Source: a virus. Taken from it: a DNA stretch of 64,000 nucleotides. Made by a program: the position numbers and the translations under genes. Shown piece after piece: positions 178-27,532 of the stretch. The DNA is taken from positions 1 to 64,000 of IMG/VR virus record IMGVR_UViG_3300045988_054118. One strand, 5' to 3'. The notes beneath the pieces were generated by a model, which saw nothing but the letters and a program-made list of their open reading frames with translations, was not told where the DNA came from and ran no database searches. How positions within the stretch are numbered: the first letter of the stretch is position 1; every line of letters begins with the position of its first letter.

Positions 178-459
178 TCATATACAAGTTCCGCAATAGC
201 CTCGTTTGTCTTGTCTATCAATTCCTTCTCTTTCATAACATAAATTATGTTGTTCTGGAGGAAGTTTAGTAGCGTTATAATACTTAACTCTTTGTAACTT
301 CCTACTTCTTAATTCTTCCTTAATAAATGGCAGAAATTCTTCGTCTGGTAAATCTGCTATTATTACTAATGGCATTTCTGACCTATCAAAGTTAAAAGAG
401 ACTTTATACCCAACTGGGTCTAAACTCTCAATATCTAGTCCGCCTATATACTCCATTTT
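178..459 (-). CDS. Hypothetical protein downstream of TerL (start uncertain; the upstream part of track ORF 178..639 overlaps the TerL 3' end in another frame)
   Basis: ORF ending in TGA at 178-180; the TerL frame continues to TGA at 428-430, so the ORF's N-terminal ~60 codons are probably not translated. Confidence 0.35.
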   Translation of the reverse strand, partial: KMEYIGGLDIESLDPVGYKVSFNFDRSEMPLVIIADLPDEEFLPFIKEELRSRKLQRVKYYNATKLPPEQHNLCYEREGIDRQDKRGYCGTCI

Positions 460-2791
460 GTACAAGTCCCTCATATATTCTAGGATCACTTGTTTCAACT
501 CTGTATGGGTCATCATATTCGTTTCTTTGCATATTAAGTTCAGGAGTTTTCTTAGTTGGAATAACTCCAAATCTTTTAATTCCTCTCTCGTCGTAATAGT
601 AACCAAAATCTTGGAACTATTCAACTTCTTTCTCCACAAGTACGGGCTGTCTTCCTGATAGCTCTTGGTCTGCCAACTCAGTCATACCTACAGCGGCTAC
701 AATATCATACTTACCCTTATTTTCATCATTATATGCAGTAAACTATTCTAGCATTTCTTCGAACCATATAGTATGGCAATAGTCTTCTATAAAGGCGGCT
801 GTTAAATCAGTATGCTATTCGATTATAGTTTTTGTAGCAGGAGTTCCATACTATTTAGTAGTTCCATTTCTAACGTCAGTTAGAGTAGCTCTTGGGCGCT
901 TCATAAAATAGTTAAGGCATCCTTTTTCTCTAGCCCAAGTAACCATACCCATACGAGTAGCTTCTATATTTATTTTACAATTATAATAGCGAGCTAAACA
1001 CATAGCTATTTTATAGGCTTCTCTGATGTCTCCAGGTCTATCCTTGTACATAGCAACATACTGAGGGTCATTCATACCAAACGCACGTTTCTTAATCGTT
1101 ATGCAGAAATCAGACGGGTCTCTGGTTTCCTTAGAAGTCTAATTCGCTCCAATATCAATACCGTCTATACCTGCTACATATAAGTCTCGCATCTCTTTAT
1201 AAACTGGAACTTCAAAATCCTAGCCATTATCTTCTGCCTCCTATCTAAGCTTTTCCATTTGTTCTTTATATAAGTCAGACCATATTGGATGCTCTAGAAT
1301 TTTTACTTTGCCATTGCTGTTAGGAATCCATTTAAAACCATCAATATTATCCTAAGTATGTTTATTATTTTTGTAAAAATAATCAATATAACCACATTCG
1401 GGTCTTGGGCCAATTTGTTTAAGTCTTATATTAGCTATCTATTCGGCAACTAAAATTTTATTAAACTTATTAACACCTTCTAGATTAAATGCTTCTTCTG
1501 CATTCCAACAACGTTCAGCGCATTTCTTTAGGTAGTCTTCTGGTACAACTAACAGATTATCTCGCTCCTCCTATAAGAATTTCTTATATTCCACAGTATT
1601 ACATACTCCTCTGTGGTCCATAAATTCTGGATTCAAAGATTGTATAAAGTATGGAATAAAGAATCCACTCTCTATAGTAGTCCCATCCTAAGTCCAATTA
1701 TGTCTAAATGGAAGAATCTTATATGCTCTTGGATTATAGTAAATCTTTTTTAAGCCCTCTAGAGGAGCACCCATATCACCGCCAGTACCTCCAAACAACA
1801 TTGTTCCACGAGGCATACCTTGAACTTCACAAAGTTCTTGACCTTGTACCACAGCGGTATCAAGTCCAGGCCAGGAACCAGCTTCATCATATATTAATAA
1901 ATCTACACGGTCTCCACGAATGTTAGATGGTTTAGCTCCGTTAATTGCTACAACCTCAGATTTAAATCCTACGTCTTCAAACTAACCATTTATTTTGATT
2001 TGTTTACCTGATTTCTTTCTCAAATCCTGGTCAATAAGTCGCAATTTAAAAAATCCTCCTCCAGTACAGGTATTTAAGAATGTAAGAGCATTGTCAAACT
2101 TACTAAAGGTACCCTTAAGGAAGGTATCATTAAAGCAAGTAATCATAACCCTACTTCTTCTAATAACAGAGTACATACGAGCAGAAAGAGAGGCGTTTAT
2201 TTCAGAGAATCCAATAGAACGAGCTTTCATTAAAGCTGCGTGCTTGTGTAGCACCCTAGCCATCTATAGATAATGAAAGAACATATAATGTGATGCAAAG
2301 AATATTGGGAAGTCATTATCAGTACCCTCACCAGAGGCTTTCTACTAGTCAATAGTAGGTAACTAATAGAAATTTAAGAAGAAGTAATTATCTCCAGTAA
2401 TGGTGTATCCATTAACTGTCATTCCATACTTACATCTTCTATATTGCTCTTTCCAAAATTCGTTGTACCGCTTACTATCTCTAAGGTAGGGACAGTATTG
2501 ACCAGTTCGTTTATATACTTCCCTAGTCTCGGTAAACCAATCTGGATTAAAGTCCAATCCATGAGTTTCGTCAATAGGTCTGTATCCAGTTATTTCATAA
2601 GATAAGGTAGGGTCAAATACTTCTATTTTATCTCCTATTTTAACATCCCAATAGTCAGAATTTCTGACCCTTTCCTCTCTTATTTTCTATACTAGTTCTC
2701 TAGCTTCTTTAGCATCCTCTTTCTATTCTTTTTCTCTTACCTAATCTACAATATTCTATATTTCTTCAGGTAATATCTTTTTTCTTGGCAT
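428..2791 (-). CDS. terL: Terminase large subunit (TerL), translated with TAG read as a sense codon (probably Gln); ~787 aa
   Basis: Continuous frame from ATG at 2789-2791 to TGA at 428-430 once TAG is read through (>15 in-frame TAG). Track fragments 2363..2557 and 851..1075 lie in the same frame. The N-terminus reads like a TerL ATPase (…NPDWFTETREVYKRTGQYCPYLRDSK…) and the C-terminus like an RNase H-like nuclease (AGIDGIDIGANQ…MYKDRPGDIREAYKIAMCLARYYNCKINIEATRMG). Confidence 0.75.
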
Positions 2792-3391: not shown

Positions 3392-3970
3392 TTATTTCTT
3401 TTTCATTTTGGAACCGCACTTATTGACTTTCATTTTGGAACCACAAGCGTCTTTCTTAGCATATTGTTTTCTGTCAGGAACCCATTTTCCTTCCTGGAAA
3501 TTACCCTTATGTCCCTTATTGGCCATAGTTTCCTAATCATTGTATTTATTGATTGATATAGAATCTCTTGAGGCTTCGTCTCTAGCAGATTTCATATCTT
3601 TCTTATACTAAGCTCTTCCAGCCTTAAATTTATCAACTTCATTAGCTTTCTTAGTAACTTTAGTTCCTTTTTGTGCTTTCTGGCAAGCTTTACAGATTCT
3701 ACCGCCTTGCTTAAAATATACAAGCTCTTCTCCTTCTGGACATACTCCTTTTAGCTTCTTATAATACTCAAGCTTAGCTCCAAGCCTAGCCATTACTCCT
3801 CCTTGCATTTTCTGCATAAATTCCTGATACTTAGCTTTAATGCCGTCTTCTCCTAATTGTTCAGCATAAGCTTGTAAATCCTATTCAGATTGTACTTGTA
3901 TTCCCTACGCAGCGGCATCTTGTATTAGATATGCCATAAATGCTTTTTGTAATTCTTCCTAGTTAGCCAT
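3392..3970 (-). CDS. Hypothetical Lys/Cys-rich protein, recoded (in-frame TAG); includes track ORF 3608..3817
   Basis: ATG at 3968-3970 (overlaps the upstream TAA as TAATG), TAA at 3392-3394. Track ORF 3608..3817 ends at a TAG and the reading continues protein-like through it (…KFKAGRA-Q-YKKDMKSARDE…CGSKMKVNKCGSKMKKK). Confidence 0.55.
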
Positions 3971-7808: not shown

Positions 7809-8123
7809 TCAATCAAGTTTAACATAATCCATCCAGTCTTTTATATATGATTTACATTCTTCCAAATCTGGATAGATACTTGTTATAGAGCATCCAGTTT
7901 TCGGATTTTTAAAGTGGTGCATCTTAGCCTCTTCTTTTTTCTCCTCTTCTGTATTTCTATTTAATGTTCTATTCCAATAGTTGTACTTTTCATCTAACAT
8001 TTCCATATCACATTCCTCTAATATTTTCATATTAGGGTTATTCATTATCTTGTCGTATTTTCTCTTTAAATTAGAGACTTTGACAACATCATTTCCATTT
8101 AATACAACTGCACACTGTTTCAT
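7809..8123 (-). CDS. Hypothetical protein
   Basis: ORF with a TGA stop. Confidence 0.45.
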   Translation of the reverse strand: MKQCAVVLNGNDVVKVSNLKRKYDKIMNNPNMKILEECDMEMLDEKYNYWNRTLNRNTEEEKKEEAKMHHFKNPKTGCSITSIYPDLEECKSYIKDWMDYVKLD

Positions 8124-8347
8124 TTCAATACCTTATAAGTACATATCTTGCCTATCTGTTTTCCTTGAATTGTTATTTGCGGAAGAAAATAGCAGGCTTG
8201 ATTTTCAAATTCTTGAGGTACAAAGATATAATCAAACTTACTTCCAACTACCTTCTCACAAACTTTATTCCAATCGTCTCCCTCTTCTATAATAAGAGTT
8301 TTAGCTCCTGTTGGAGTTACTACATAATTCTCATTTAATTTTATCAT
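8120..8347 (-). CDS. Hypothetical protein (start moved to the internal Met so it does not overlap the tRNA)
   Basis: The track ORF 8120..8422 N-terminus overlaps the tRNA at 8365..8436; internal start MIKLNENYVV…. Confidence 0.4.
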   Translation of the reverse strand: MIKLNENYVVTPTGAKTLIIEEGDDWNKVCEKVVGSKFDYIFVPQEFENQACYFLPQITIQGKQIGKICTYKVLK

Positions 8348-8364
8348 AACTATTAATTTTGGCG

Positions 8365-8436
8365 TTGCCCTACTAGGATTCGAACCCAGACTAAATGATT
8401 TAGAGTCATCTGTGCTGACCATTACACCATAGGGCA
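8365..8436 (-). tRNA. Suppressor tRNA, anticodon CUA (reads UAG); Gln-tRNA-derived
   Basis: Cloverleaf read on the minus strand: acceptor TGCCCTA/TAGGGCA, D-stem GTGT/GCAC, anticodon stem GATGA/TCATT with loop CTCTAAA (anticodon CTA), T-arm CTGGG-TTCGAAT-CCTAG. The architecture is nearly identical to the tRNA-Gln(TTG) at 23373..23444. Confidence 0.8.
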
Positions 8437-8999: not shown

Positions 9000-9294
9000 A
9001 CAACAATAACCTCCGAAAAGTTAAACGCAAAGTTAAAAAATTCTAATTCAAATATTATACATATTTTATATATTAAGGGGAAAGCCGGTACAGGTACTTT
9101 ATATAAATAGCCCCCTGGGGTTATTATAAATTCCGACTTTTATATTTGGAGGGTAATTACCTAGATTCCAAAAATTCATAGAGTGAGTGTAGTGGCGGTC
9201 CACAACCCCTTTAGTCCCCCCCTGTATATTGATATAAAACTAAAACAAAAACAAAAATCAATTTCCAGTATTAACATTCTAAAATTTTAAGATT
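9000..9294. promoter_or_regulatory. Divergent intergenic region separating the recoded leftward module from the rightward module; candidate Bacteroidales -7 box TATATTTG at 9141-9148
   Basis: No ORF on either side; TAnnTTTG motif present; genes diverge from here. Confidence 0.45.
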
Positions 9295-9741
9295 ATGACA
9301 CTCGAAGAATTGAAAGACCAGAACGTAAACGCAGTAGAAAGAGCTAAGGCAGTAGTATCAGCATTGGGACTGAAAGGTGATGAACGCTCAGTTGTTGTCG
9401 GCTTGTCAAAGGGCGATAAGTTTAAGTTGGTAGCAATGAACAAGGTAGATTTACCTGCAAATGCCAACCAACCAAATCAAAGCAACTTTACTCCAATCAC
9501 ATTCAGCACTGACACAGGTGCAACCATTGGTGCAAAACACTTTGCGGGCGTAGAAATCGACGACGATGCTCCGGCAATCGGTTCAACTCCGTTGGAAAAT
9601 GCCGTTTTCCTTGTTTATTGCATTGACCACAATGTAACATTTAAGGTAGACAAAAAGGTAACGGAAGACATCGAAGCTACCGCAGACCGCCAAGCCTACA
9701 AGAAAAATACTTACAAGCTGGTAGTGGAAGACTATGATTAA
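9295..9741 (+). CDS. Hypothetical protein (locally GC-richer)
   Basis: ORF of 148 aa, TAA stop. Confidence 0.5.
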   Translation: MTLEELKDQNVNAVERAKAVVSALGLKGDERSVVVGLSKGDKFKLVAMNKVDLPANANQPNQSNFTPITFSTDTGATIGAKHFAGVEIDDDAPAIGSTPLENAVFLVYCIDHNVTFKVDKKVTEDIEATADRQAYKKNTYKLVVEDYD

Positions 9742-10704
9742 AAGATTGGGGAGAAATCCCCTTTCTTTTACATACAAATAAGCTTTGTAGAAATGGACAT
9801 AAGAAAAAAGTTTAAGACTATAAAGTGTTTGTATAATTGGGGCATAATCTATGACCCAAAGACTAATGAAAAGTTAAATTTCAAAGCCAAACGTGTTTAT
9901 TGCGTAACTTCTTGGGCTTGGATTATGACCTATCAAAAGTCAGAAGAAGATATCCCTGAGATAATTAGGATAGTCTTTGTAGATTAACTCTAAGGTACTA
10001 TGAGTTTTAAATAAAGTGCCCAACATGAACCCCATCATCGGAACGTTGGTTAACGGGGAAAACAACAAATCAAATCAAAGTTTTTGTTTAGTTTTAGGAT
10101 TATATCTGGCAGCTTGGAAAGACAAGCAAAATCTTTATACCTATCTGCTAATAGGTTTAGTGTTCAACGCGAAAATTCGGTAAAGGAGAGAAATTGTCCA
10201 CTAAAAAGACCCTCAATTTCCGGACTTTTTCCGATTTTCAAAAAATCCGCCAGAGTAGGAGTTATATAGCTCACACTCTCTATGGACATTATTTAGTATT
10301 TAGCCTATAAAAAGGCAACAAAAAGCGAGGCTACGCAGAAGAGCCTAACACCAAAAATAACTGCTACAAATTCTATGTGCATATTCGCAAACTTGAGCAC
10401 TATAGGATTTAGGTTGAGCTGTAAGGATTGGTCACTTATAGCAATATTATGAGTACTGCTGATATGTCAGTGACCGTACATATCACATATAAAATATGTT
10501 ATACAATTATGTTAGAAGTTGCCAGGTCTAAGAAGCCTGATTAAAATCTCTAGATAGTAAGAGAGAACCTCATAAGGGTTCATTTTCCATCTCGAATCTA
10601 TTCGCAAGTTTTGAGATTAGCTACCTCAGAATTTAGTGAACGTTGTATGTCTGGAAAACATACTAAATAATCTCCTATCTTATACTAGTTGTCAAGATAG
10701 GATT

Positions 10705-10775
10705 TCCCCATTAGTATAATGCTATTGCGCCTTCCTCTAAAGAAGGAGATTCTGGTTCGAGTCCAGAATGGGGGA
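10705..10775 (+). tRNA. Second tRNA-like gene with anticodon CUA (anticodon loop CTCTAAA); D-arm non-canonical
   Basis: Acceptor TCCCCAT/ATGGGGG (one G·U pair), anticodon stem CCTTC/GAAGG with loop CTCTAAA, T-arm TCTGG-TTCGAGT-CCAGA, discriminator A. Confidence 0.55.
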
Positions 10776-11192
10776 ACTTGGTATTTGAAGACTACAACTA
10801 CTTGTAGACTCTGTTGCAGTTAAAGATTATAATGGGTACGCCCTGAGACTAATGCAGAGCATCTCTTATGAATAGAGGTGTCTTATCGTGAGATAAGGCA
10901 AAGTATTGTGAGATTGAGAGAATTACTAGCTAAAATGTTAGAAGAAGACCCAGATTCAAGTAGCAATATCTACAAAGAAATATGGGGAGCTTATACTGCT
11001 GGGATGAACTCCTTGCTCGAGTAGCAACAATTCCAAGCTTGGTGAATTAAAACTAGCTAACCTAATTACTCTTTATAAGGTTGAGAATGTAAAAAGAGAA
11101 TTGGAATGGTAAGCCCATCTCCCTTCGTCCTTTGCTGGTTTAGAAGTGAAACAGAAACCAGCACTTTTTAGTAACTTATAAACTTTTATAAT

Positions 11193-11672
11193 ATGAATAC
11201 ATTAGCATTAGATCATGTAAACAAGCGCGCAGAATTCGTAATGTCGTTTACTATTCCTTTCAAAGCAGTTGAAGATCCAACGTCGCAGGCCAAGTGCTAC
11301 AGTCCGCATGAAGTAATTATGGCATGGCGAGAGGTGTGCATCAAAGCATTACGAATGAGAATCGATGCCTGTATGGAAATGTTGTTCCGCAACAAGGACA
11401 GAGTGATAGGCTCGGACGAACGTGGCGTTTTGTTTAAGAAGAAGAATGGAAACATTCACCACTTTTCTCATGCTAGCTGTTTTGCTATGGAGGCTTTCAT
11501 AGAGATATTGGAAGAAGCAGAGAGTGCCGGGGACATAACTTTCGATGCTCTTCAAATACAGCAACTGATAAAGGCTTTGTACTGGATTCCAGACGAACTG
11601 AAGAACGATCATCAGGGAATAGGTTTCGGAGAACTAATTGACTGCCTGCTCTGCATTTTAGCAACTCTCTGA
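11193..11672 (+). CDS. Hypothetical protein
   Basis: ORF of 159 aa. Confidence 0.5.
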   Translation: MNTLALDHVNKRAEFVMSFTIPFKAVEDPTSQAKCYSPHEVIMAWREVCIKALRMRIDACMEMLFRNKDRVIGSDERGVLFKKKNGNIHHFSHASCFAMEAFIEILEEAESAGDITFDALQIQQLIKALYWIPDELKNDHQGIGFGELIDCLLCILATL

Positions 11673-13792: not shown

Positions 13793-14752
13793 ATGAAAAC
13801 AGTATTAACCCATACAGGAAAAATCTATGTTGATACAGAACATAGACTAGAGTTCTTAACTGTAGGAGACTATGGTAAGGAGAACAACATCAAGGCTGAT
13901 TTCTTAGGTCTAACTAAGGAAATCAATGGAGTAGAGAATACAGCAGTAGACCTAAGCAAGAAATGGGTAGCAACTATTTCAACTCAGAAAGGCTGTCCTA
14001 TGCATTGTAAATTCTGTGATGTTCCCAAGTTTGGATTCTATGGAAATGCTTCTATAGAAGATATGGATAGACAAATCCGAACTATTATAGAAGGCGAAAG
14101 TGTCAGAGAAACAGACAGGTTTAATGTACACTTTGCTAGAATGGGAGAACCAACATGGAATGATAATGTATTAGCATTTGGACTTGCTCTCAGAGGTGTG
14201 GTTAAGTCTGCAGGGTTAATAGCTAAAACTGTTCATCCAGTAGTTTCCACGATGCTTCCGAAAGCAAATAATAAGCTTGGAAACTTCTTACAGGTTTGGT
14301 GTAGCATAAAAAATGAGTTCTACAATGGAGAAGCAGGCTTACAGTTTTCAATCAATTCTACAGACGATGAACAGAGAAACGAGCTGTTTGACTCTAAGAG
14401 TTTGTCACTAGCACAAATTTCCCGGTTGGCTGACGAGTTACCAATGCCAGTAGGCAGAAAGTATACTCTAAATTTTCCAGTAACCTCACAAACTATTCTC
14501 GATGCGAAGGAATTGTCAAAGCTATTTGATAGGGAGAAATTTATTGTTAAAATCACTCCTATACATGAAACAGCTTCTGCTATAGAGAATGGTTTCCAGG
14601 TAACTGGATACTCTGATTATGACGTTTATCGTCGCTTCGAACAACCTTTATTGAAAGAAGGTTGGGATGTTATAGTGTTTGTTCCATCTAAGGAGGAAGA
14701 TTCTGACCGAATTACTTGTGGGAACGCACTAATCTCTGAAGAAAAGATTTAA
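13793..14752 (+). CDS. Radical SAM enzyme, function unknown
   Basis: CX3CX2C motif (GCPMHCKFCDVP) about 70 aa from the N-terminus; 319 aa. Confidence 0.6.
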   Translation: MKTVLTHTGKIYVDTEHRLEFLTVGDYGKENNIKADFLGLTKEINGVENTAVDLSKKWVATISTQKGCPMHCKFCDVPKFGFYGNASIEDMDRQIRTIIEGESVRETDRFNVHFARMGEPTWNDNVLAFGLALRGVVKSAGLIAKTVHPVVSTMLPKANNKLGNFLQVWCSIKNEFYNGEAGLQFSINSTDDEQRNELFDSKSLSLAQISRLADELPMPVGRKYTLNFPVTSQTILDAKELSKLFDREKFIVKITPIHETASAIENGFQVTGYSDYDVYRRFEQPLLKEGWDVIVFVPSKEEDSDRITCGNALISEEKI

Positions 14753-27451: not shown

Positions 27452-27532
27452 TCCGATTTAGCTCAGTCTGGTTAGAGCGTCCGCATCCAAAACATCAGCG
27501 GGAGGTCAGGGGTTCAAATCCTTTAATCGGAA
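27452..27532 (+). tRNA. Aberrant tRNA: canonical acceptor, D and T arms but a 13-nt anticodon loop (TCCGC-ATCCAAAACATCA-GCGGG)
   Basis: Acceptor TCCGATT/AATCGGA, D-arm GCTC-AGTCTGGTTA-GAGC, T-arm AGGGG-TTCAAAT-CCTTT. The only anticodon stem that can form leaves a 13-nt loop. Confidence 0.45.

Follow-up and report, generated by a model that had tools for sequence, protein, structure and literature searches.

In mitochondrial polycistrons, where tRNAs serve as punctuation, and in the MALAT1/mascRNA system, RNase P acting at a tRNA or tRNA-like fold forms the 3′ end of the RNA that lies upstream. The acronym RAGATH stands for RNAs associated with genes associated with twister and hammerhead ribozymes. 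No mention of RAGATH-14 was found in the literature searched, the original 2015 description of the RAGATH RNAs excepted, and RAGATH is absent from the main text of the 2017 "224 motifs" paper. tRNA-Pyl is distinguished by a 6-bp anticodon stem, a 3-nt variable loop, a single acceptor-D base and a non-canonical T-loop.

Gut phages using code 15 (TAG-to-Gln), among them crAss-like, zeta crAss-like and Lak phages, encode amber suppressor tRNAs; the papers on these recoded phages make no mention of a linkage between a suppressor and a non-coding RNA (10.1101/2021.08.26.457843; PMC9523058; PMC12386605). In published zeta crAss-like genomes, CTA suppressor tRNAs persist although TAG is not recoded (PMC12386605). 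Theta ribozymes, which are minimal HDV-like ribozymes, adjoin phage tRNAs, one fifth of them suppressors (Kienbeck et al. 2024, PMC10879173). They lie 3′ of the tRNA, and their cut forms the tRNA 3′ end (PMC10879173). Here we describe a gut-phage locus in which a tRNA-Gln(CUA) directly follows a RAGATH-14 RNA, in the slot taken by a hammerhead ribozyme in crAss-like phages.

Results

TAG stands for glutamine in the leftward genes

The window, i.e. the whole stretch of DNA analysed (64,000 nt), corresponds to positions 1 to 64,000 of the IMG/VR virus record IMGVR_UViG_3300045988_054118. It belongs to a large gut phage, distant kin of the crAss-like phages, whose relatives come from human-gut assemblies and were compared as loci of about 10 kb. 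As judged from codon comparisons, TAG encodes glutamine in the leftward packaging and structural genes. TerL (428..2791, minus strand) contains 20 in-frame TAGs and other leftward ORFs 2-5 each; at 30 of the 53 changed positions, the TAG codons of the window stand opposite CAA (19) or CAG (11) in relatives. Conversely, TAG codons of the relatives face CAA (21), CAG (6) or other codons (2) in the window, that is, a Gln codon in 27 of 29 cases. The use of amber read-through put forward in an initial annotation of the window, made from the sequence alone, is thus borne out, since the leftward late genes read TAG as sense. The rightward module, with replication, nucleotide-metabolism and tRNA functions, follows the standard code; its genes include DnaB, Toprim, helicase, NrdD and NAMPT. 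Cumulative GC skew reaches its minimum at about 9.0-9.5 kb, before the tRNA at 10705 and at the gene-strand change; because the two coincide, the minimum is uninformative by itself as to a replication origin.

A genuine tRNA with a CUA anticodon at 10705..10775

The features of the locus are as follows.

8364..8436, minus strand: partner amber suppressor, a canonical tRNA-Gln-like tRNA(CUA) (ARAGORN; Rfam 66.3 bits)
10215..10513, plus strand: block C, conserved and apparently structured non-coding segment 5′ of RAGATH-14 (alignment, RNAalifold)
10514..10676, plus strand: RAGATH-14 RNA (RF03145), full length (cmscan 162.4 bits)
10673..10702, plus strand: 3′-terminal hairpin of the RAGATH-14 unit, UCCUAUCUU / AAGAUAGGA (fold z=-3.25)
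10705..10775, plus strand: predicted amber suppressor derived from tRNA-Gln (ARAGORN, Rfam, covariation, same-slot homologues)
10776..10915, plus strand: block D, conserved structured non-coding segment 3′ of the tRNA (alignment of relatives)
10916..11024, plus strand: 3′ part of a truncated small ORF (window aligned and translated alongside L016, L046, L005 and L029)
11133..11170, plus strand: terminator-like hairpin, GCUGGUUUA..UAAACCAGC, with a 13-nt loop, then UUUUU (fold)

The initial annotation had described a second CUA-anticodon tRNA-like gene at 10705..10775. This element is a genuine tRNA. Rfam RF00005 matches it over model positions 1-71 with 51.7 bits (gathering score 29; E=3.4e-8). 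ARAGORN, which the annotation had recommended as a check, returns a tRNA with anticodon CTA at 10704..10777 on the plus strand and a second one at 8364..8436 on the minus strand; its ends for the former differ by 1-2 nt from those given by Rfam. The acceptor (TCCCCAT/ATGGGGG) and the T-arm (TCTGG-TTCGAGT-CCAGA) are as first described, and so is the identity of the loop CTCTAAA between the 10705 and 8364 tRNAs. Across nine distinct family members, cloverleaf pairing holds in 97.4% of cells, against 41-53% in slid controls, with five compensatory pairs and covariation in the acceptor and anticodon stems.

The anticodon (10737-10739) sits in a 7-nt loop, C32 U33 C34 U35 A36 A37 A38, with U33 and a purine at 37. 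The family falls into three diverged subfamilies, across which the anticodon loop is invariant: CUCUAAA is unchanged in at least 14 distinct CUA sequences, while the anticodon stem shows compensatory pairs. Acceptor position 1 forms a U1.G72 wobble, the discriminator is A73, and CCA is not encoded; A73 is followed by ACUU, and +1 is not a G. Compared to its relatives, the window copy has one extra G. The D-arm is indeed non-canonical, as initially noted, with 3 pairs plus, in the window's subfamily, a U.U. Its loop reads AAUGCUA (AAUGCA or AAGUCA in relatives, with a single G). Hence, of the elements of a canonical elbow, the T-loop (TTCGAGT) is present and G18G19 of the D-loop are absent, a departure from the consensus that is no bar to membership in the tRNA family.

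Same-slot homologues, whose bodies are homologous apart from the anticodon, carry CUG in locus L028 and UUG in L256 (51 bits). Because of these homologues, and because in-frame TAGs lie opposite CAA/CAG, we trace the 10705 tRNA to a tRNA-Gln ancestor that turned into an amber suppressor. The tRNA is predicted to decode UAG and would be charged with glutamine by GlnRS. Counting against this are the weak D stem, the missing G18G19 and the departure of C2-G71, C3-G70 and A73 from the identity set of E. coli GlnRS. ARAGORN labels any tRNA with a CUA anticodon as tRNA-Pyl; this identity was rejected on the basis of structure and of the TAG codons found opposite CAA/CAG. No PylS-like protein was found among 20 window ORFs scanned against Pfam or PHROGs.

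The partner suppressor at 8364..8436

The 8364 tRNA lies inside the TAG-recoded leftward module and closely resembles the phage's own tRNA-Gln(UUG) (23373..23445). It is 100% identical in six relatives, with flanks about 77-99% identical, and the position of tRNAs of this type is conserved, on the strand opposite RAGATH-14 and 2-3.5 kb upstream of it. The arrangement of two suppressors on opposite strands, pointed out in the initial annotation, turns out to be a conserved pair: both occur together in the window and in L008, L010, L016, L029, L038 and L067. The two tRNAs have only 39 of 75 aligned columns in common and differ in lineage; thus, a recent duplication of one from the other was rejected.

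The tRNA is locked to a RAGATH-14 RNA and its terminal hairpin

Immediately upstream of the tRNA, cmscan identifies RAGATH-14 with 162.4 bits (gathering score 149.1; model positions 1-190; E=4.6e-30). Homologues of this RNA were found in 34 IMG/VR loci, in 2 MAG contigs and, among the matches listed, in 17 of 120 metagenome loci; the only GenBank phage records that match are cr53_1 and one unannotated contig, over RAGATH-14 alone. A pattern specific for the tRNA family retrieved 20 IMG/VR loci, and in 20/20 the tRNA stands behind RAGATH-14 (one of them, L065, ends at the locus edge). The same pattern gave 0 matches in 185,579 species genomes (one genome per species).

Measured from the Rfam 3′ end of RAGATH-14, the gap to the tRNA is 28 nt in the window, L002 and L005, 29 nt in L006, L051, L059 and L256, and 31 nt in L021; in L048, where it reaches 55 nt, the insert lies in a hairpin loop. 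This hairpin (10673..10702 in the window), which the Rfam model covers incompletely, is found in tRNA-linked, hammerhead-linked and unlinked loci. Its 10 distinct variants retain a stem of 8-11 bp, and 7 positions show Watson-Crick swaps. No U-run follows hairpins of this type. Two nucleotides (UU) separate it from tRNA position +1. Every tRNA-linked locus has U at position -1, the leader base favoured there by bacterial RNase P.

No promoter of the RAGATH-14/tRNA unit was identified. Just 5′ of RAGATH-14, no promoter common to the tRNA-linked and hammerhead-linked lineages is recognisable, and the sequence differs between the two. Long-range pairing of 10284-10299 with 10660-10675, in the 3′ tail of RAGATH-14, was discarded, as the complementarity, read by eye, is lost in relatives. 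Rfam gave no ribozyme match at E<=1 in 10100-11300 and none at gathering scores in the whole window. In particular, a theta or HDV-like ribozyme 3′ of the 10705 tRNA, which would be a nested double pseudoknot cutting within +/-5 nt of the tRNA 3′ end, was dismissed (no HDV-family Rfam match at E<=1); a descriptor of our own for the HDV-like fold, a weak negative as it had no positive control, likewise found none at the 3′ ends of the window tRNAs or in 9985-11190.

A hammerhead ribozyme in the same slot

Relatives carry hammerhead, hatchet and pistol ribozymes. In L001, L047, L062, L055, L049 and L011, Hammerhead_3 matches begin 23-25 nt past RAGATH-14. They score 36-42 bits, under the Rfam gathering score of 48.5, with canonical cores. 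The slot hammerhead reads GCUGUC|GUAUC..GAUAC CUGAUGA GUCUU..AAGAC GAAA CAGC, and its stem III covaries (GCUA/UAGC); direct reading of L001, L055 and L049 identified the CUGAUGA and GAAA cores, three stems and a GUC/AUC triplet, as in type III hammerheads. The hairpin preceding these hammerheads is the one that precedes the tRNA, compensatory changes included. These alignments indicate that the tRNA slot of the window lineage is the hammerhead slot of crAss-like phages.

Among the matches listed, the RAGATH-14 loci collected comprise at least 27 with tRNA-CUA (at least 14 distinct), at least 1 with a CUG tRNA, at least 18 with a hammerhead, at least 1 with a tRNA bearing a 6-nt D-arm deletion (L174) and at least 2 with neither (L022 and L035). 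The UUG tRNA of L256 and the tRNA-like element of L249 were added to the tally later. The latter, known from a single MAG sequence, is a cloverleaf-like fold in which a 4-nt loop replaces the anticodon loop, and it matches no tRNA model. In L022, where identity to the window is 97% as far as 10701, the tRNA and block D have been lost, and RAGATH-14 and its hairpin remain. Neither L022 nor L035 has a recognisable cleavage element; a cutter downstream of RAGATH-14 is therefore not obligatory.

Structured RNAs and a truncated ORF in the surrounding kilobase

The initial annotation had portrayed 10185-11190 as ORF-free, with no ORF above 60 aa. This is essentially correct, except that a 61-aa ORF with a TTG start (10084..10269) overlaps the left edge and that 10935..11024 is the remnant of an ORF intact in relatives. 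The segment is not empty: besides this truncated small ORF, it consists of structured RNAs that are conserved and lined up in an array; the array, the coupling of the tRNA to RAGATH-14 and the hammerhead slot had all been missed.

Block C aligns at 72-77% identity in diverged relatives (about 77% in adjacent protein genes). RNAalifold assigns it 46 pairs, 6 of which show compensatory changes; it matches no Rfam family. A protein gene in 9990-10513 with TAG as sense was rejected: the stop-free frame (133 codons, 10054..10452) has no ATG near its start and the indels of relatives are not multiples of 3. Block D, whose conservation in relatives breaks off sharply at 10915, contains the hairpins CUACA..UGUAG and GGG-UACG-CCC and a GNRA hairpin at 10880-10899. 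The latter includes the CTTATC-GTGA-GATAAG element singled out initially (10882-10897) within a 9-bp stem, and is kept in relatives with GAGA for GUGA, both GNRA loops. The single-sequence fold of the block has a z of only -1.2, with no Rfam match at E<=1. Its motif TATAATGRGTACGCCC occurs in 29 tRNA-linked loci and in 0 hammerhead-linked ones. TATAATGGGTACGCCC travels with the tRNA in 29 loci and may be a promoter or a structural motif; it was rejected as a repeated promoter because the 64-kb window contains a single copy. A sigma-70-like TAGACT-17-TATAAT is also present in block D (10805-10833).

The small-ORF remnant has an ATG at 10935 and a TAG stop at 11022-11024, and would encode 29 aa. 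In relatives the ORF spans 50-74 aa (12855..13079 in L016); the window and L002 lack about 264 nt of this region, the start among them. Further downstream, the terminator-like hairpin precedes the first rightward protein gene, at 11193. L029 keeps the stem with altered bases (ACTGATTT..AAATTAGT). The consensus scan missed this hairpin because its loop exceeds 8 nt.

Discussion

A suppressor that may also form the 3′ end of RAGATH-14

We favour, with a probability of roughly 0.65, the reading that the 10705 element is a functional tRNA-Gln(CUA) co-transcribed with RAGATH-14, and that RNase P cleavage at the tRNA takes the place of hammerhead cleavage. The tRNA would probably have a double role: it would read UAG as glutamine and mark a site of RNA cleavage. 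As it begins 2 nt after the RAGATH-14 terminal hairpin, a separate promoter does not fit in front of it. Going by this geometry, a single precursor would run from RAGATH-14 (possibly from block C) through the hairpin and the tRNA into block D. Host RNase P would cleave at tRNA position +1 and free the suppressor; from the same cut RAGATH-14 would acquire its 3′ terminus, the hairpin followed by UU. In the crAss-like relatives, an equivalent end would be produced by the type III hammerhead, which starts right after the hairpin and would cut 6 nt beyond. Suppressor output, and presumably the timing of its expression, would be coupled to how RAGATH-14, which heads the standard-code module, is transcribed.

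Alternative readings

An unlikely alternative is that the 10705 tRNA is an ordinary, independently expressed second suppressor, two copies being kept for dosage or for early and late supply, with RAGATH-14 a mere neighbour because both lie in non-coding DNA close to where the gene orientations diverge. In favour of this, the layout with two suppressors is conserved, L022 lost the tRNA and kept RAGATH-14, and a sigma-70-like match overlaps 10689-10717. However, this match is 9/12, in a region having 14 matches versus 10.3 +/- 3.0 when shuffled, and the 28-nt gap to RAGATH-14 is filled by a conserved hairpin that leaves no room for a promoter. Nor does independence account for the spacing, which stays at 28-31 nt even though the subfamilies diverge along the whole length of the tRNA, for a linkage seen in 20/20 loci, or for a slot also used by the hammerhead.

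It is also unlikely that the 10705 tRNA is mainly a processing handle, comparable to the mascRNA of MALAT1, or a decoy, suppression being left to the 8364 tRNA. The L249 fold without an anticodon loop occupies the slot, L174 has its D-arm deletion and the 10705 D-arm is non-canonical; the 8364 tRNA is 100% conserved across relatives, and zeta crAss-like genomes retain CTA suppressors without TAG recoding (PMC12386605). Against this, CUCUAAA is invariant in at least 14 distinct sequences despite compensatory changes in the anticodon stem, the T-loop is canonical and TAG is in use as glutamine in the window phage. The CUG and UUG anticodons of the homologues would do harm on a mis-charged tRNA and serve no purpose on one that does not decode. 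Gln anticodons in the same slot make sense only in a decoding tRNA, and the decoy or regulatory RNA considered in the initial annotation is not supported, given them and a loop that is invariant across three diverged subfamilies with compensatory stems.

Very unlikely, in our estimate, is that RAGATH-14 acts as a cis-regulatory leader (riboswitch- or attenuator-like) timing suppressor synthesis, that is, as a controller of the code switch. Its position immediately upstream on the same strand, at fixed spacing and with a hairpin in between, would suit such a leader and would agree with suggestions in the literature that the availability of suppressor sets the timing of late-gene translation. 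RAGATH-14 and its hairpin, however, occur without the tRNA in at least 18 hammerhead-linked loci, in L022 and in L035, and no U-run stands behind the hairpin; RAGATH-14 would thus have a role of its own rather than serve as a dedicated tRNA leader. Finally, a chance anticodon-arm-like hairpin or pseudo-tRNA, for which the weak D stem, the U1.G72 wobble, the extra G and the 1-2-nt disagreement between ARAGORN and Rfam ends could be cited, is refuted by the 51.7-bit score (E=3.4e-8), covariation in the acceptor and anticodon stems and recurrence in at least 27 loci.

Implications

Extending the favoured reading of a co-transcribed suppressor cut by RNase P, we tentatively envisage that the slot 3′ of the RAGATH-14 hairpin is a general site of 3′-end formation, open to a hammerhead, a tRNA-Gln or a bare tRNA-like fold. 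A tRNA-Gln might have been recruited purely as RNase P punctuation, its anticodon changing later to CUA; this could have seeded or reinforced amber-to-Gln recoding, with suppressor supply now one-to-one with RAGATH-14 transcription. If true, this would be a natural ribozyme/tRNA interchange in RNA processing, with a processing element exapted into a genetic-code switch.

The locus bears on the production of suppressor tRNAs in recoded phages and on its timing. It offers a concrete, conserved and testable arrangement: a tRNA-Gln(CUA) lineage and an orphan structured RNA head the standard-code module, and a second, canonical suppressor lies in the recoded module. For RAGATH-14, the 3′ boundary is now defined and a processing model can be put to the test. 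Should the interchange be real, nature would hold a counterpart to the engineered arrays in which guide RNAs are processed by way of flanking ribozymes or tRNAs, and the CUA tRNAs of some crAss-like genomes without visible recoding would be easier to explain.

Comparison with known systems

Like code 15 phages, the window phage has a CUA tRNA, late and structural genes in which TAG corresponds to Gln and replication genes in the standard code, and its suppressor sits amid standard-code genes. Unlike them, it holds two unrelated CUA tRNAs as a conserved pair, one of which is of a lineage found solely in fusion with RAGATH-14. With respect to tRNA-Pyl, the 10705 tRNA shares the CUA anticodon and has a D-loop without G18G19; it differs by its 5-bp anticodon stem, 4-nt variable loop, two acceptor-D bases (U8 A9) and canonical TTCRANY T-loop.

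The theta systems resemble this locus in that a small RNA-processing element is joined to a suppressor tRNA with no encoded CCA in a recoded gut phage. In the window, however, the coupling is on the 5′ side of the tRNA, to a 163-nt structured RNA, and the tRNA appears to take a ribozyme's place instead of being served by one. The parallel with MALAT1/mascRNA is conceptual and is best seen in the L249 element, which lacks an anticodon loop; the mascRNA and mitochondrial systems are eukaryotic or organellar, whereas here a phage tRNA apparently also decodes and sister phages use a self-cleaving ribozyme. As for the RAGATH-14 family itself, crAss-like relatives have hammerhead, RAGATH-6, twister-like, RAGATH-7 and hatchet elements after RAGATH-14, in keeping with the family name; in the window lineage a tRNA stands where the hammerhead-linked relatives have their neighbouring hammerhead.

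A structured RNA directly precedes the second CUA tRNA

The initial annotation pointed to a second tRNA-like gene with a CUA anticodon, lying in a kilobase devoid of open reading frames, and overlooked the RNA found directly 5' of it. This is RAGATH-14, a curated Rfam family (RF03145) without assigned function. The features in question are arranged as follows.

10514..10676, plus strand: full-length RAGATH-14 RNA (RF03145; Rfam 162.4 bits, gathering score 149.1, E=4.6e-30)
10673-10702, plus strand: 9-bp hairpin UCCUAUCUU/AAGAUAGGA (folding z=-3.25)
10705..10775, plus strand: tRNA(CUA)

The hairpin sits between RAGATH-14 and the tRNA, with 2 nt (UU) from its end to tRNA position +1. A stem of 8-11 bp is kept in 10 distinct versions of the hairpin across phage lineages, with Watson-Crick swaps at 7 positions; it therefore belongs to the RAGATH-14 unit as a conserved 3' part, incompletely covered by the Rfam model. 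RAGATH-14 is more than a leader of the tRNA, since many phages have it without the tRNA. Among them is L022, one of the related loci (L numbers) from viral, metagenome or MAG contigs (here 1686..2471, contig IMGVR_UViG_3300045988_069050); this relative is 97% identical to window 9054-10701. L022 retains RAGATH-14 and the hairpin, has lost the tRNA and the sequence 3' of it (block D), and is joined directly to an element that in L016 lies further downstream; it is a natural deletion variant.

ARAGORN, proposed as a check along with a covariance model, identified 19 tRNAs in the window, two of them with anticodon CTA: 8364..8436(-) and 10704..10777(+). Independently of ARAGORN, 10705..10775 matches the full Rfam tRNA model with 51.7 bits (gathering score 29). 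The acceptor (TCCCCAT/ATGGGGG, with a U1.G72 wobble and A73), the anticodon arm (CCTTC-CTCTAAA-GAAGG) and the T-arm (TCTGG-TTCGAGT-CCAGA) are as originally described, and so is the non-canonical D-arm, whose stem comprises G10-C25, U11.G24, A12-U23 and U13.U22 and whose 7-nt loop has no GG. In 9 distinct homologues from public contigs, standard pairs occupy 97.4% of the cloverleaf pair cells and both sides change at 5 pairs (3 in the acceptor stem, 2 in the anticodon stem); shifting the 3' partners by 1-3 columns, as a control, brings pairing down to 41-53%. Together with the ARAGORN call and the Rfam score, this covariation bears out a real second CUA tRNA. The Rfam tRNA model also matches 27452..27532(+) (51.6 bits) and 24204..24280(+) (30.4 bits), neither called by ARAGORN; these may be tRNAs of the tRNA block that are unusual or contain an intron.

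The position following RAGATH-14 usually holds a tRNA or a hammerhead ribozyme

A search of IMG/VR with a conserved RAGATH-14 core pattern yielded 63 loci, 34 of which are true RAGATH-14 by nhmmer. A same-strand CUA tRNA follows in 17 of the 34, and a homologous tRNA-Gln(CUG) in one (L028). In Rfam coordinates, the gap between the two elements is 28 nt in the window, L002 and L005; 29 nt in L006, L051, L059 and the MAG contig L256; 31 nt in L021; and 55 nt in L048, where the hairpin loop carries an insert. In the reverse direction, a pattern specific to the 10705-type tRNA family recovered 20 IMG/VR loci, all with RAGATH-14 upstream (cut by the locus end in one), and gave zero matches across 185,579 bacterial and archaeal species represented by one genome each. 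By these sequence criteria, the linkage is conserved and exclusive. A metagenome scan added at least 17 RAGATH-14 loci.

Occupants of the slot, the position directly 3' of the RAGATH-14 terminal hairpin, in the window, viral and metagenome loci (the metagenome share is a lower bound)
tRNA-CUA: at least 27 loci, 14 distinct sequences
tRNA-CUG: at least 1 locus
tRNA with a 6-nt D-arm deletion (L174): at least 1 locus
Hammerhead: at least 18 loci
Neither tRNA nor hammerhead (L022, L035): at least 2 loci

In the metagenome contig L174, the deletion takes the 3' half of the D-arm of a tRNA(CUA) and the ARAGORN call is lost; the copy may be decaying, or the contig may be misassembled. Two MAG contigs carry other variants. 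L256 (CAZYSQ010000013.1) has a RAGATH-linked homologue with anticodon UUG (Gln) at 3522..3592(-) (51 bits); this tRNA has an unusual C37 and is followed, after about 320 nt, by a pistol ribozyme (65.7 bits). In L249 (CALUTN010000183.1, 7868..7970), the hairpin is followed by UUU and a cloverleaf-like fold of 71 nt, in which the acceptor stem and the T-arm are good but the anticodon-arm position has a 4-bp arm with a 4-nt loop; it is called by neither ARAGORN nor the tRNA model of Rfam. The bins are assigned to Gastranaerophilales (L249) and Acholeplasmataceae (L256), probably artefacts of binning phage contigs.

In crAss-like relatives (L001, which is cr53_1, L047, L062, L055, L049 and L011), the tRNA is absent and Rfam Hammerhead_3 matches start 23-25 nt past RAGATH-14. 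Their scores (36-42 bits) are under the gathering score. Read directly, the element is GCUGUC|GUAUC...GAUAC-CUGAUGA-GUCUU...AAGAC-GAAA-CAGC, with stem III covariation (GCUA/UAGC) and a GUC or AUC cleavage triplet. Judged from these features, the crAss-like elements are canonical type III hammerheads, placed directly after the same hairpin. In two human-gut metagenome loci (L166 and L172) the hammerhead core reads CCGAUGA rather than CUGAUGA (U4 to C), a change expected to weaken cleavage.

Further downstream, crAss-like loci contain an array of structured RNAs punctuated by ribozymes (RAGATH-6, a twister-like match, RAGATH-7, then hatchets); in the window's lineage the tRNA is followed by block D and, further on in L051 and L256, by a pistol ribozyme. 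The twister-P1 matches (L062 1451..1503, L011 456..508, L055 9349..9401) are below threshold (37 bits; gathering score 67) and have zero gap to the RAGATH-6 3' end, with RAGATH-7 within 5 nt, a placement that fits a ribozyme-punctuated array. The crAss-like locus L055 also has a RAGATH-9 RNA and a permuted-tmRNA match at 2160..2415(-) (49.5 bits, gathering score 47).

TAG recoding and the two suppressors

Reading TAG as sense brings out long leftward ORFs that are broken under the standard code; the large terminase, 428..2791(-) (phrog_6681, E=1.7e-62), has 20 in-frame TAGs. With Crassvirales terminases it shares only 25-28% identity, against 43-44% with two unannotated contigs from the human gut; most relatives come from IMG/VR contigs about 100-270 kb long, many measuring 177-193 kb. 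Rightward ORFs, which are intact in the standard code, specify a DnaB-like helicase, a Toprim primase, an SNF2-type helicase, NrdD (anaerobic ribonucleotide reductase), NAMPT and an OmpA-like protein; this module also has most of the tRNAs. Where a window TAG faces a differing codon in relatives, the latter is CAA in 19 cases, CAG in 11 and GAG in 9; TAGs of relatives face window CAA (21), CAG (6) or other codons (2). These alignments indicate that TAG stands for glutamine in this phage. Just ahead of the tRNA block, 13793..14752(+) encodes a protein of 319 aa whose CxxxCxxC motif (GCPMHCKFCDVP) is typical of radical-SAM enzymes; given this location, it may be a tRNA-modification enzyme. It matches phrog_24834 (E=4e-107), which has no assigned function, and no Pfam family at 1e-5.

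The anticodon loop of the RAGATH-linked CUA tRNAs is constant while the stems co-vary, sister copies have both Gln sense anticodons (CUG and UUG), and the phage uses TAG as Gln; the 10705 tRNA is thus of Gln ancestry and would be a real decoder. The same observations speak against the earlier suggestion that the gene might be a decoy, which found no support; that reading is borne out as to a genuine second suppressor belonging to a conserved pair, for which dosage control would be a candidate role.

Both suppressors are present in every relative with enough upstream sequence. They are not duplicates of each other, since only 39 of 75 aligned columns are in common. The upstream tRNA (8364..8436(-)) resembles the phage's own tRNA-Gln(UUG) at 23373 and is located within the recoded module, where an ORF containing 4 TAGs lies just upstream of it. 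Its 73 nt are 100% identical in L008, L010, L016, L029, L038 and L067, with flanking DNA and genes at about 77-99%. L249 and L256 keep an upstream CUA tRNA on the opposite strand (2.1 kb upstream in L249) while their slot holds a non-suppressor, which suggests that the 8364 copy is the core suppressor and the RAGATH-linked copy an additional one, arisen by anticodon change. The listed ORF 8120..8422(-) overlaps the 8364 tRNA and is probably mis-started.

The remainder of the noncoding region

The kilobase 10185-11190 is ORF-free as described: apart from a 61-aa TTG ORF overlapping its left edge, all frames are of 48 aa or less. Noncoding sequence from about 9986 to 10915 shows 72-77% alignment identity to diverged relatives, on par with neighbouring protein genes.

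10215..10513, plus strand (block C): conserved noncoding sequence of about 300 nt with several co-varying hairpins, directly 5' of RAGATH-14
10776-10915, plus strand (block D): hairpins capped by UNCG and GNRA, among them the one initially noticed
11133-11170: terminator-like hairpin and U-run, ahead of the first rightward protein gene at 11193

RNAalifold assigns 46 pairs to block C, 6 of them with changes on both sides. Among its hairpins with compensatory changes is a stem around the invariant loop UUCGCAAACUU. Block C has no match in Rfam; it may represent a structured RNA that is new, or else extend RAGATH-14 on the 5' side in this lineage. Conserved short hairpins in 9985..10135(+) also show compensatory changes (CCCC/GGGG versus CUCC/GGAG; GCUUG-GAAAGA-CAAGC versus GAUAG-GAAAGA-CUAUC); they lie between a 64-aa ORF ending at 9987 and block C, and are separated by a variable A-rich tract. 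The cumulative GC-skew minimum, at about 9000..9500, coincides with the leftward/rightward divergence point about 1 kb upstream of block C and could reflect a replication origin or a mere gene-strand switch.

About 50 nt past the tRNA, block D contains the motif TATAATGRGTACGCCC (TATAATGGGTACGCCC as RNA; 10828..10843(+)), found once in the window and in at least 29 tRNA-linked loci (nearly all), also where the intervening sequence differs; none of the hammerhead-linked loci has it among the matches listed. It could be a -10 element of sigma-70 type (TAGACT-17-TATAAT) or else belong to a hairpin capped by UACG. Position 10915/10916 is a mosaic breakpoint: compared with L005, L016 and L046, about 264 nt are missing from the window and from L002, while L006, L021 and others have part of this stretch. 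Lost with it are additional structured sequence and the beginning of a small ORF that is conserved in relatives; its last 29-36 codons remain at 10916-11024.

A possible role in RNA processing

The tRNA is likely co-transcribed with RAGATH-14, since its placement leaves no room for a promoter of its own. Since one position behind one conserved hairpin is occupied interchangeably by a hammerhead, a tRNA or a tRNA-like fold, we infer that the slot supplies the cut forming the RAGATH-14 3' end. Type III hammerheads cleave just past the 5' strand of stem III, so the upstream product would be RAGATH-14, the hairpin and 6 nt; RNase P cleavage at tRNA +1 would leave RAGATH-14, the hairpin and 2-4 nt. 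Position -1 is U in all tRNA-linked loci, and U at -1 is the leader base favoured by bacterial RNase P.

Comparison with known systems

Zeta crAss-like genomes keep CTA suppressor tRNAs without TAG recoding, in a role called unexplained (PMC12386605); the proposed processing function is a candidate explanation for them. Suppressor tRNAs of gut phages that read TAG as Gln are well described (10.1101/2021.08.26.457843; PMC9523058; PMC12386605), and theta (HDV-like) ribozymes were reported in 2024 to cleave phage tRNAs, often of suppressor type, at the 3' end (PMC10879173). No HDV-like fold was detected 3' of the 10705 tRNA by Rfam or by a non-validated descriptor. Our search of the library literature found no mention of RAGATH-14; the supplement of the original RAGATH description may list tRNA neighbours. 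The window arrangement differs from the TAG=Gln suppressors, from RAGATH-14 as curated and from theta-tRNA coupling: here, a large structured RNA is coupled to the tRNA at its 5' side, and whereas theta ribozymes process the tRNA, the tRNA instead takes a ribozyme's place. The novelty lies in the fixed module of RAGATH-14, hairpin and tRNA, which is equivalent to the hammerhead slot.
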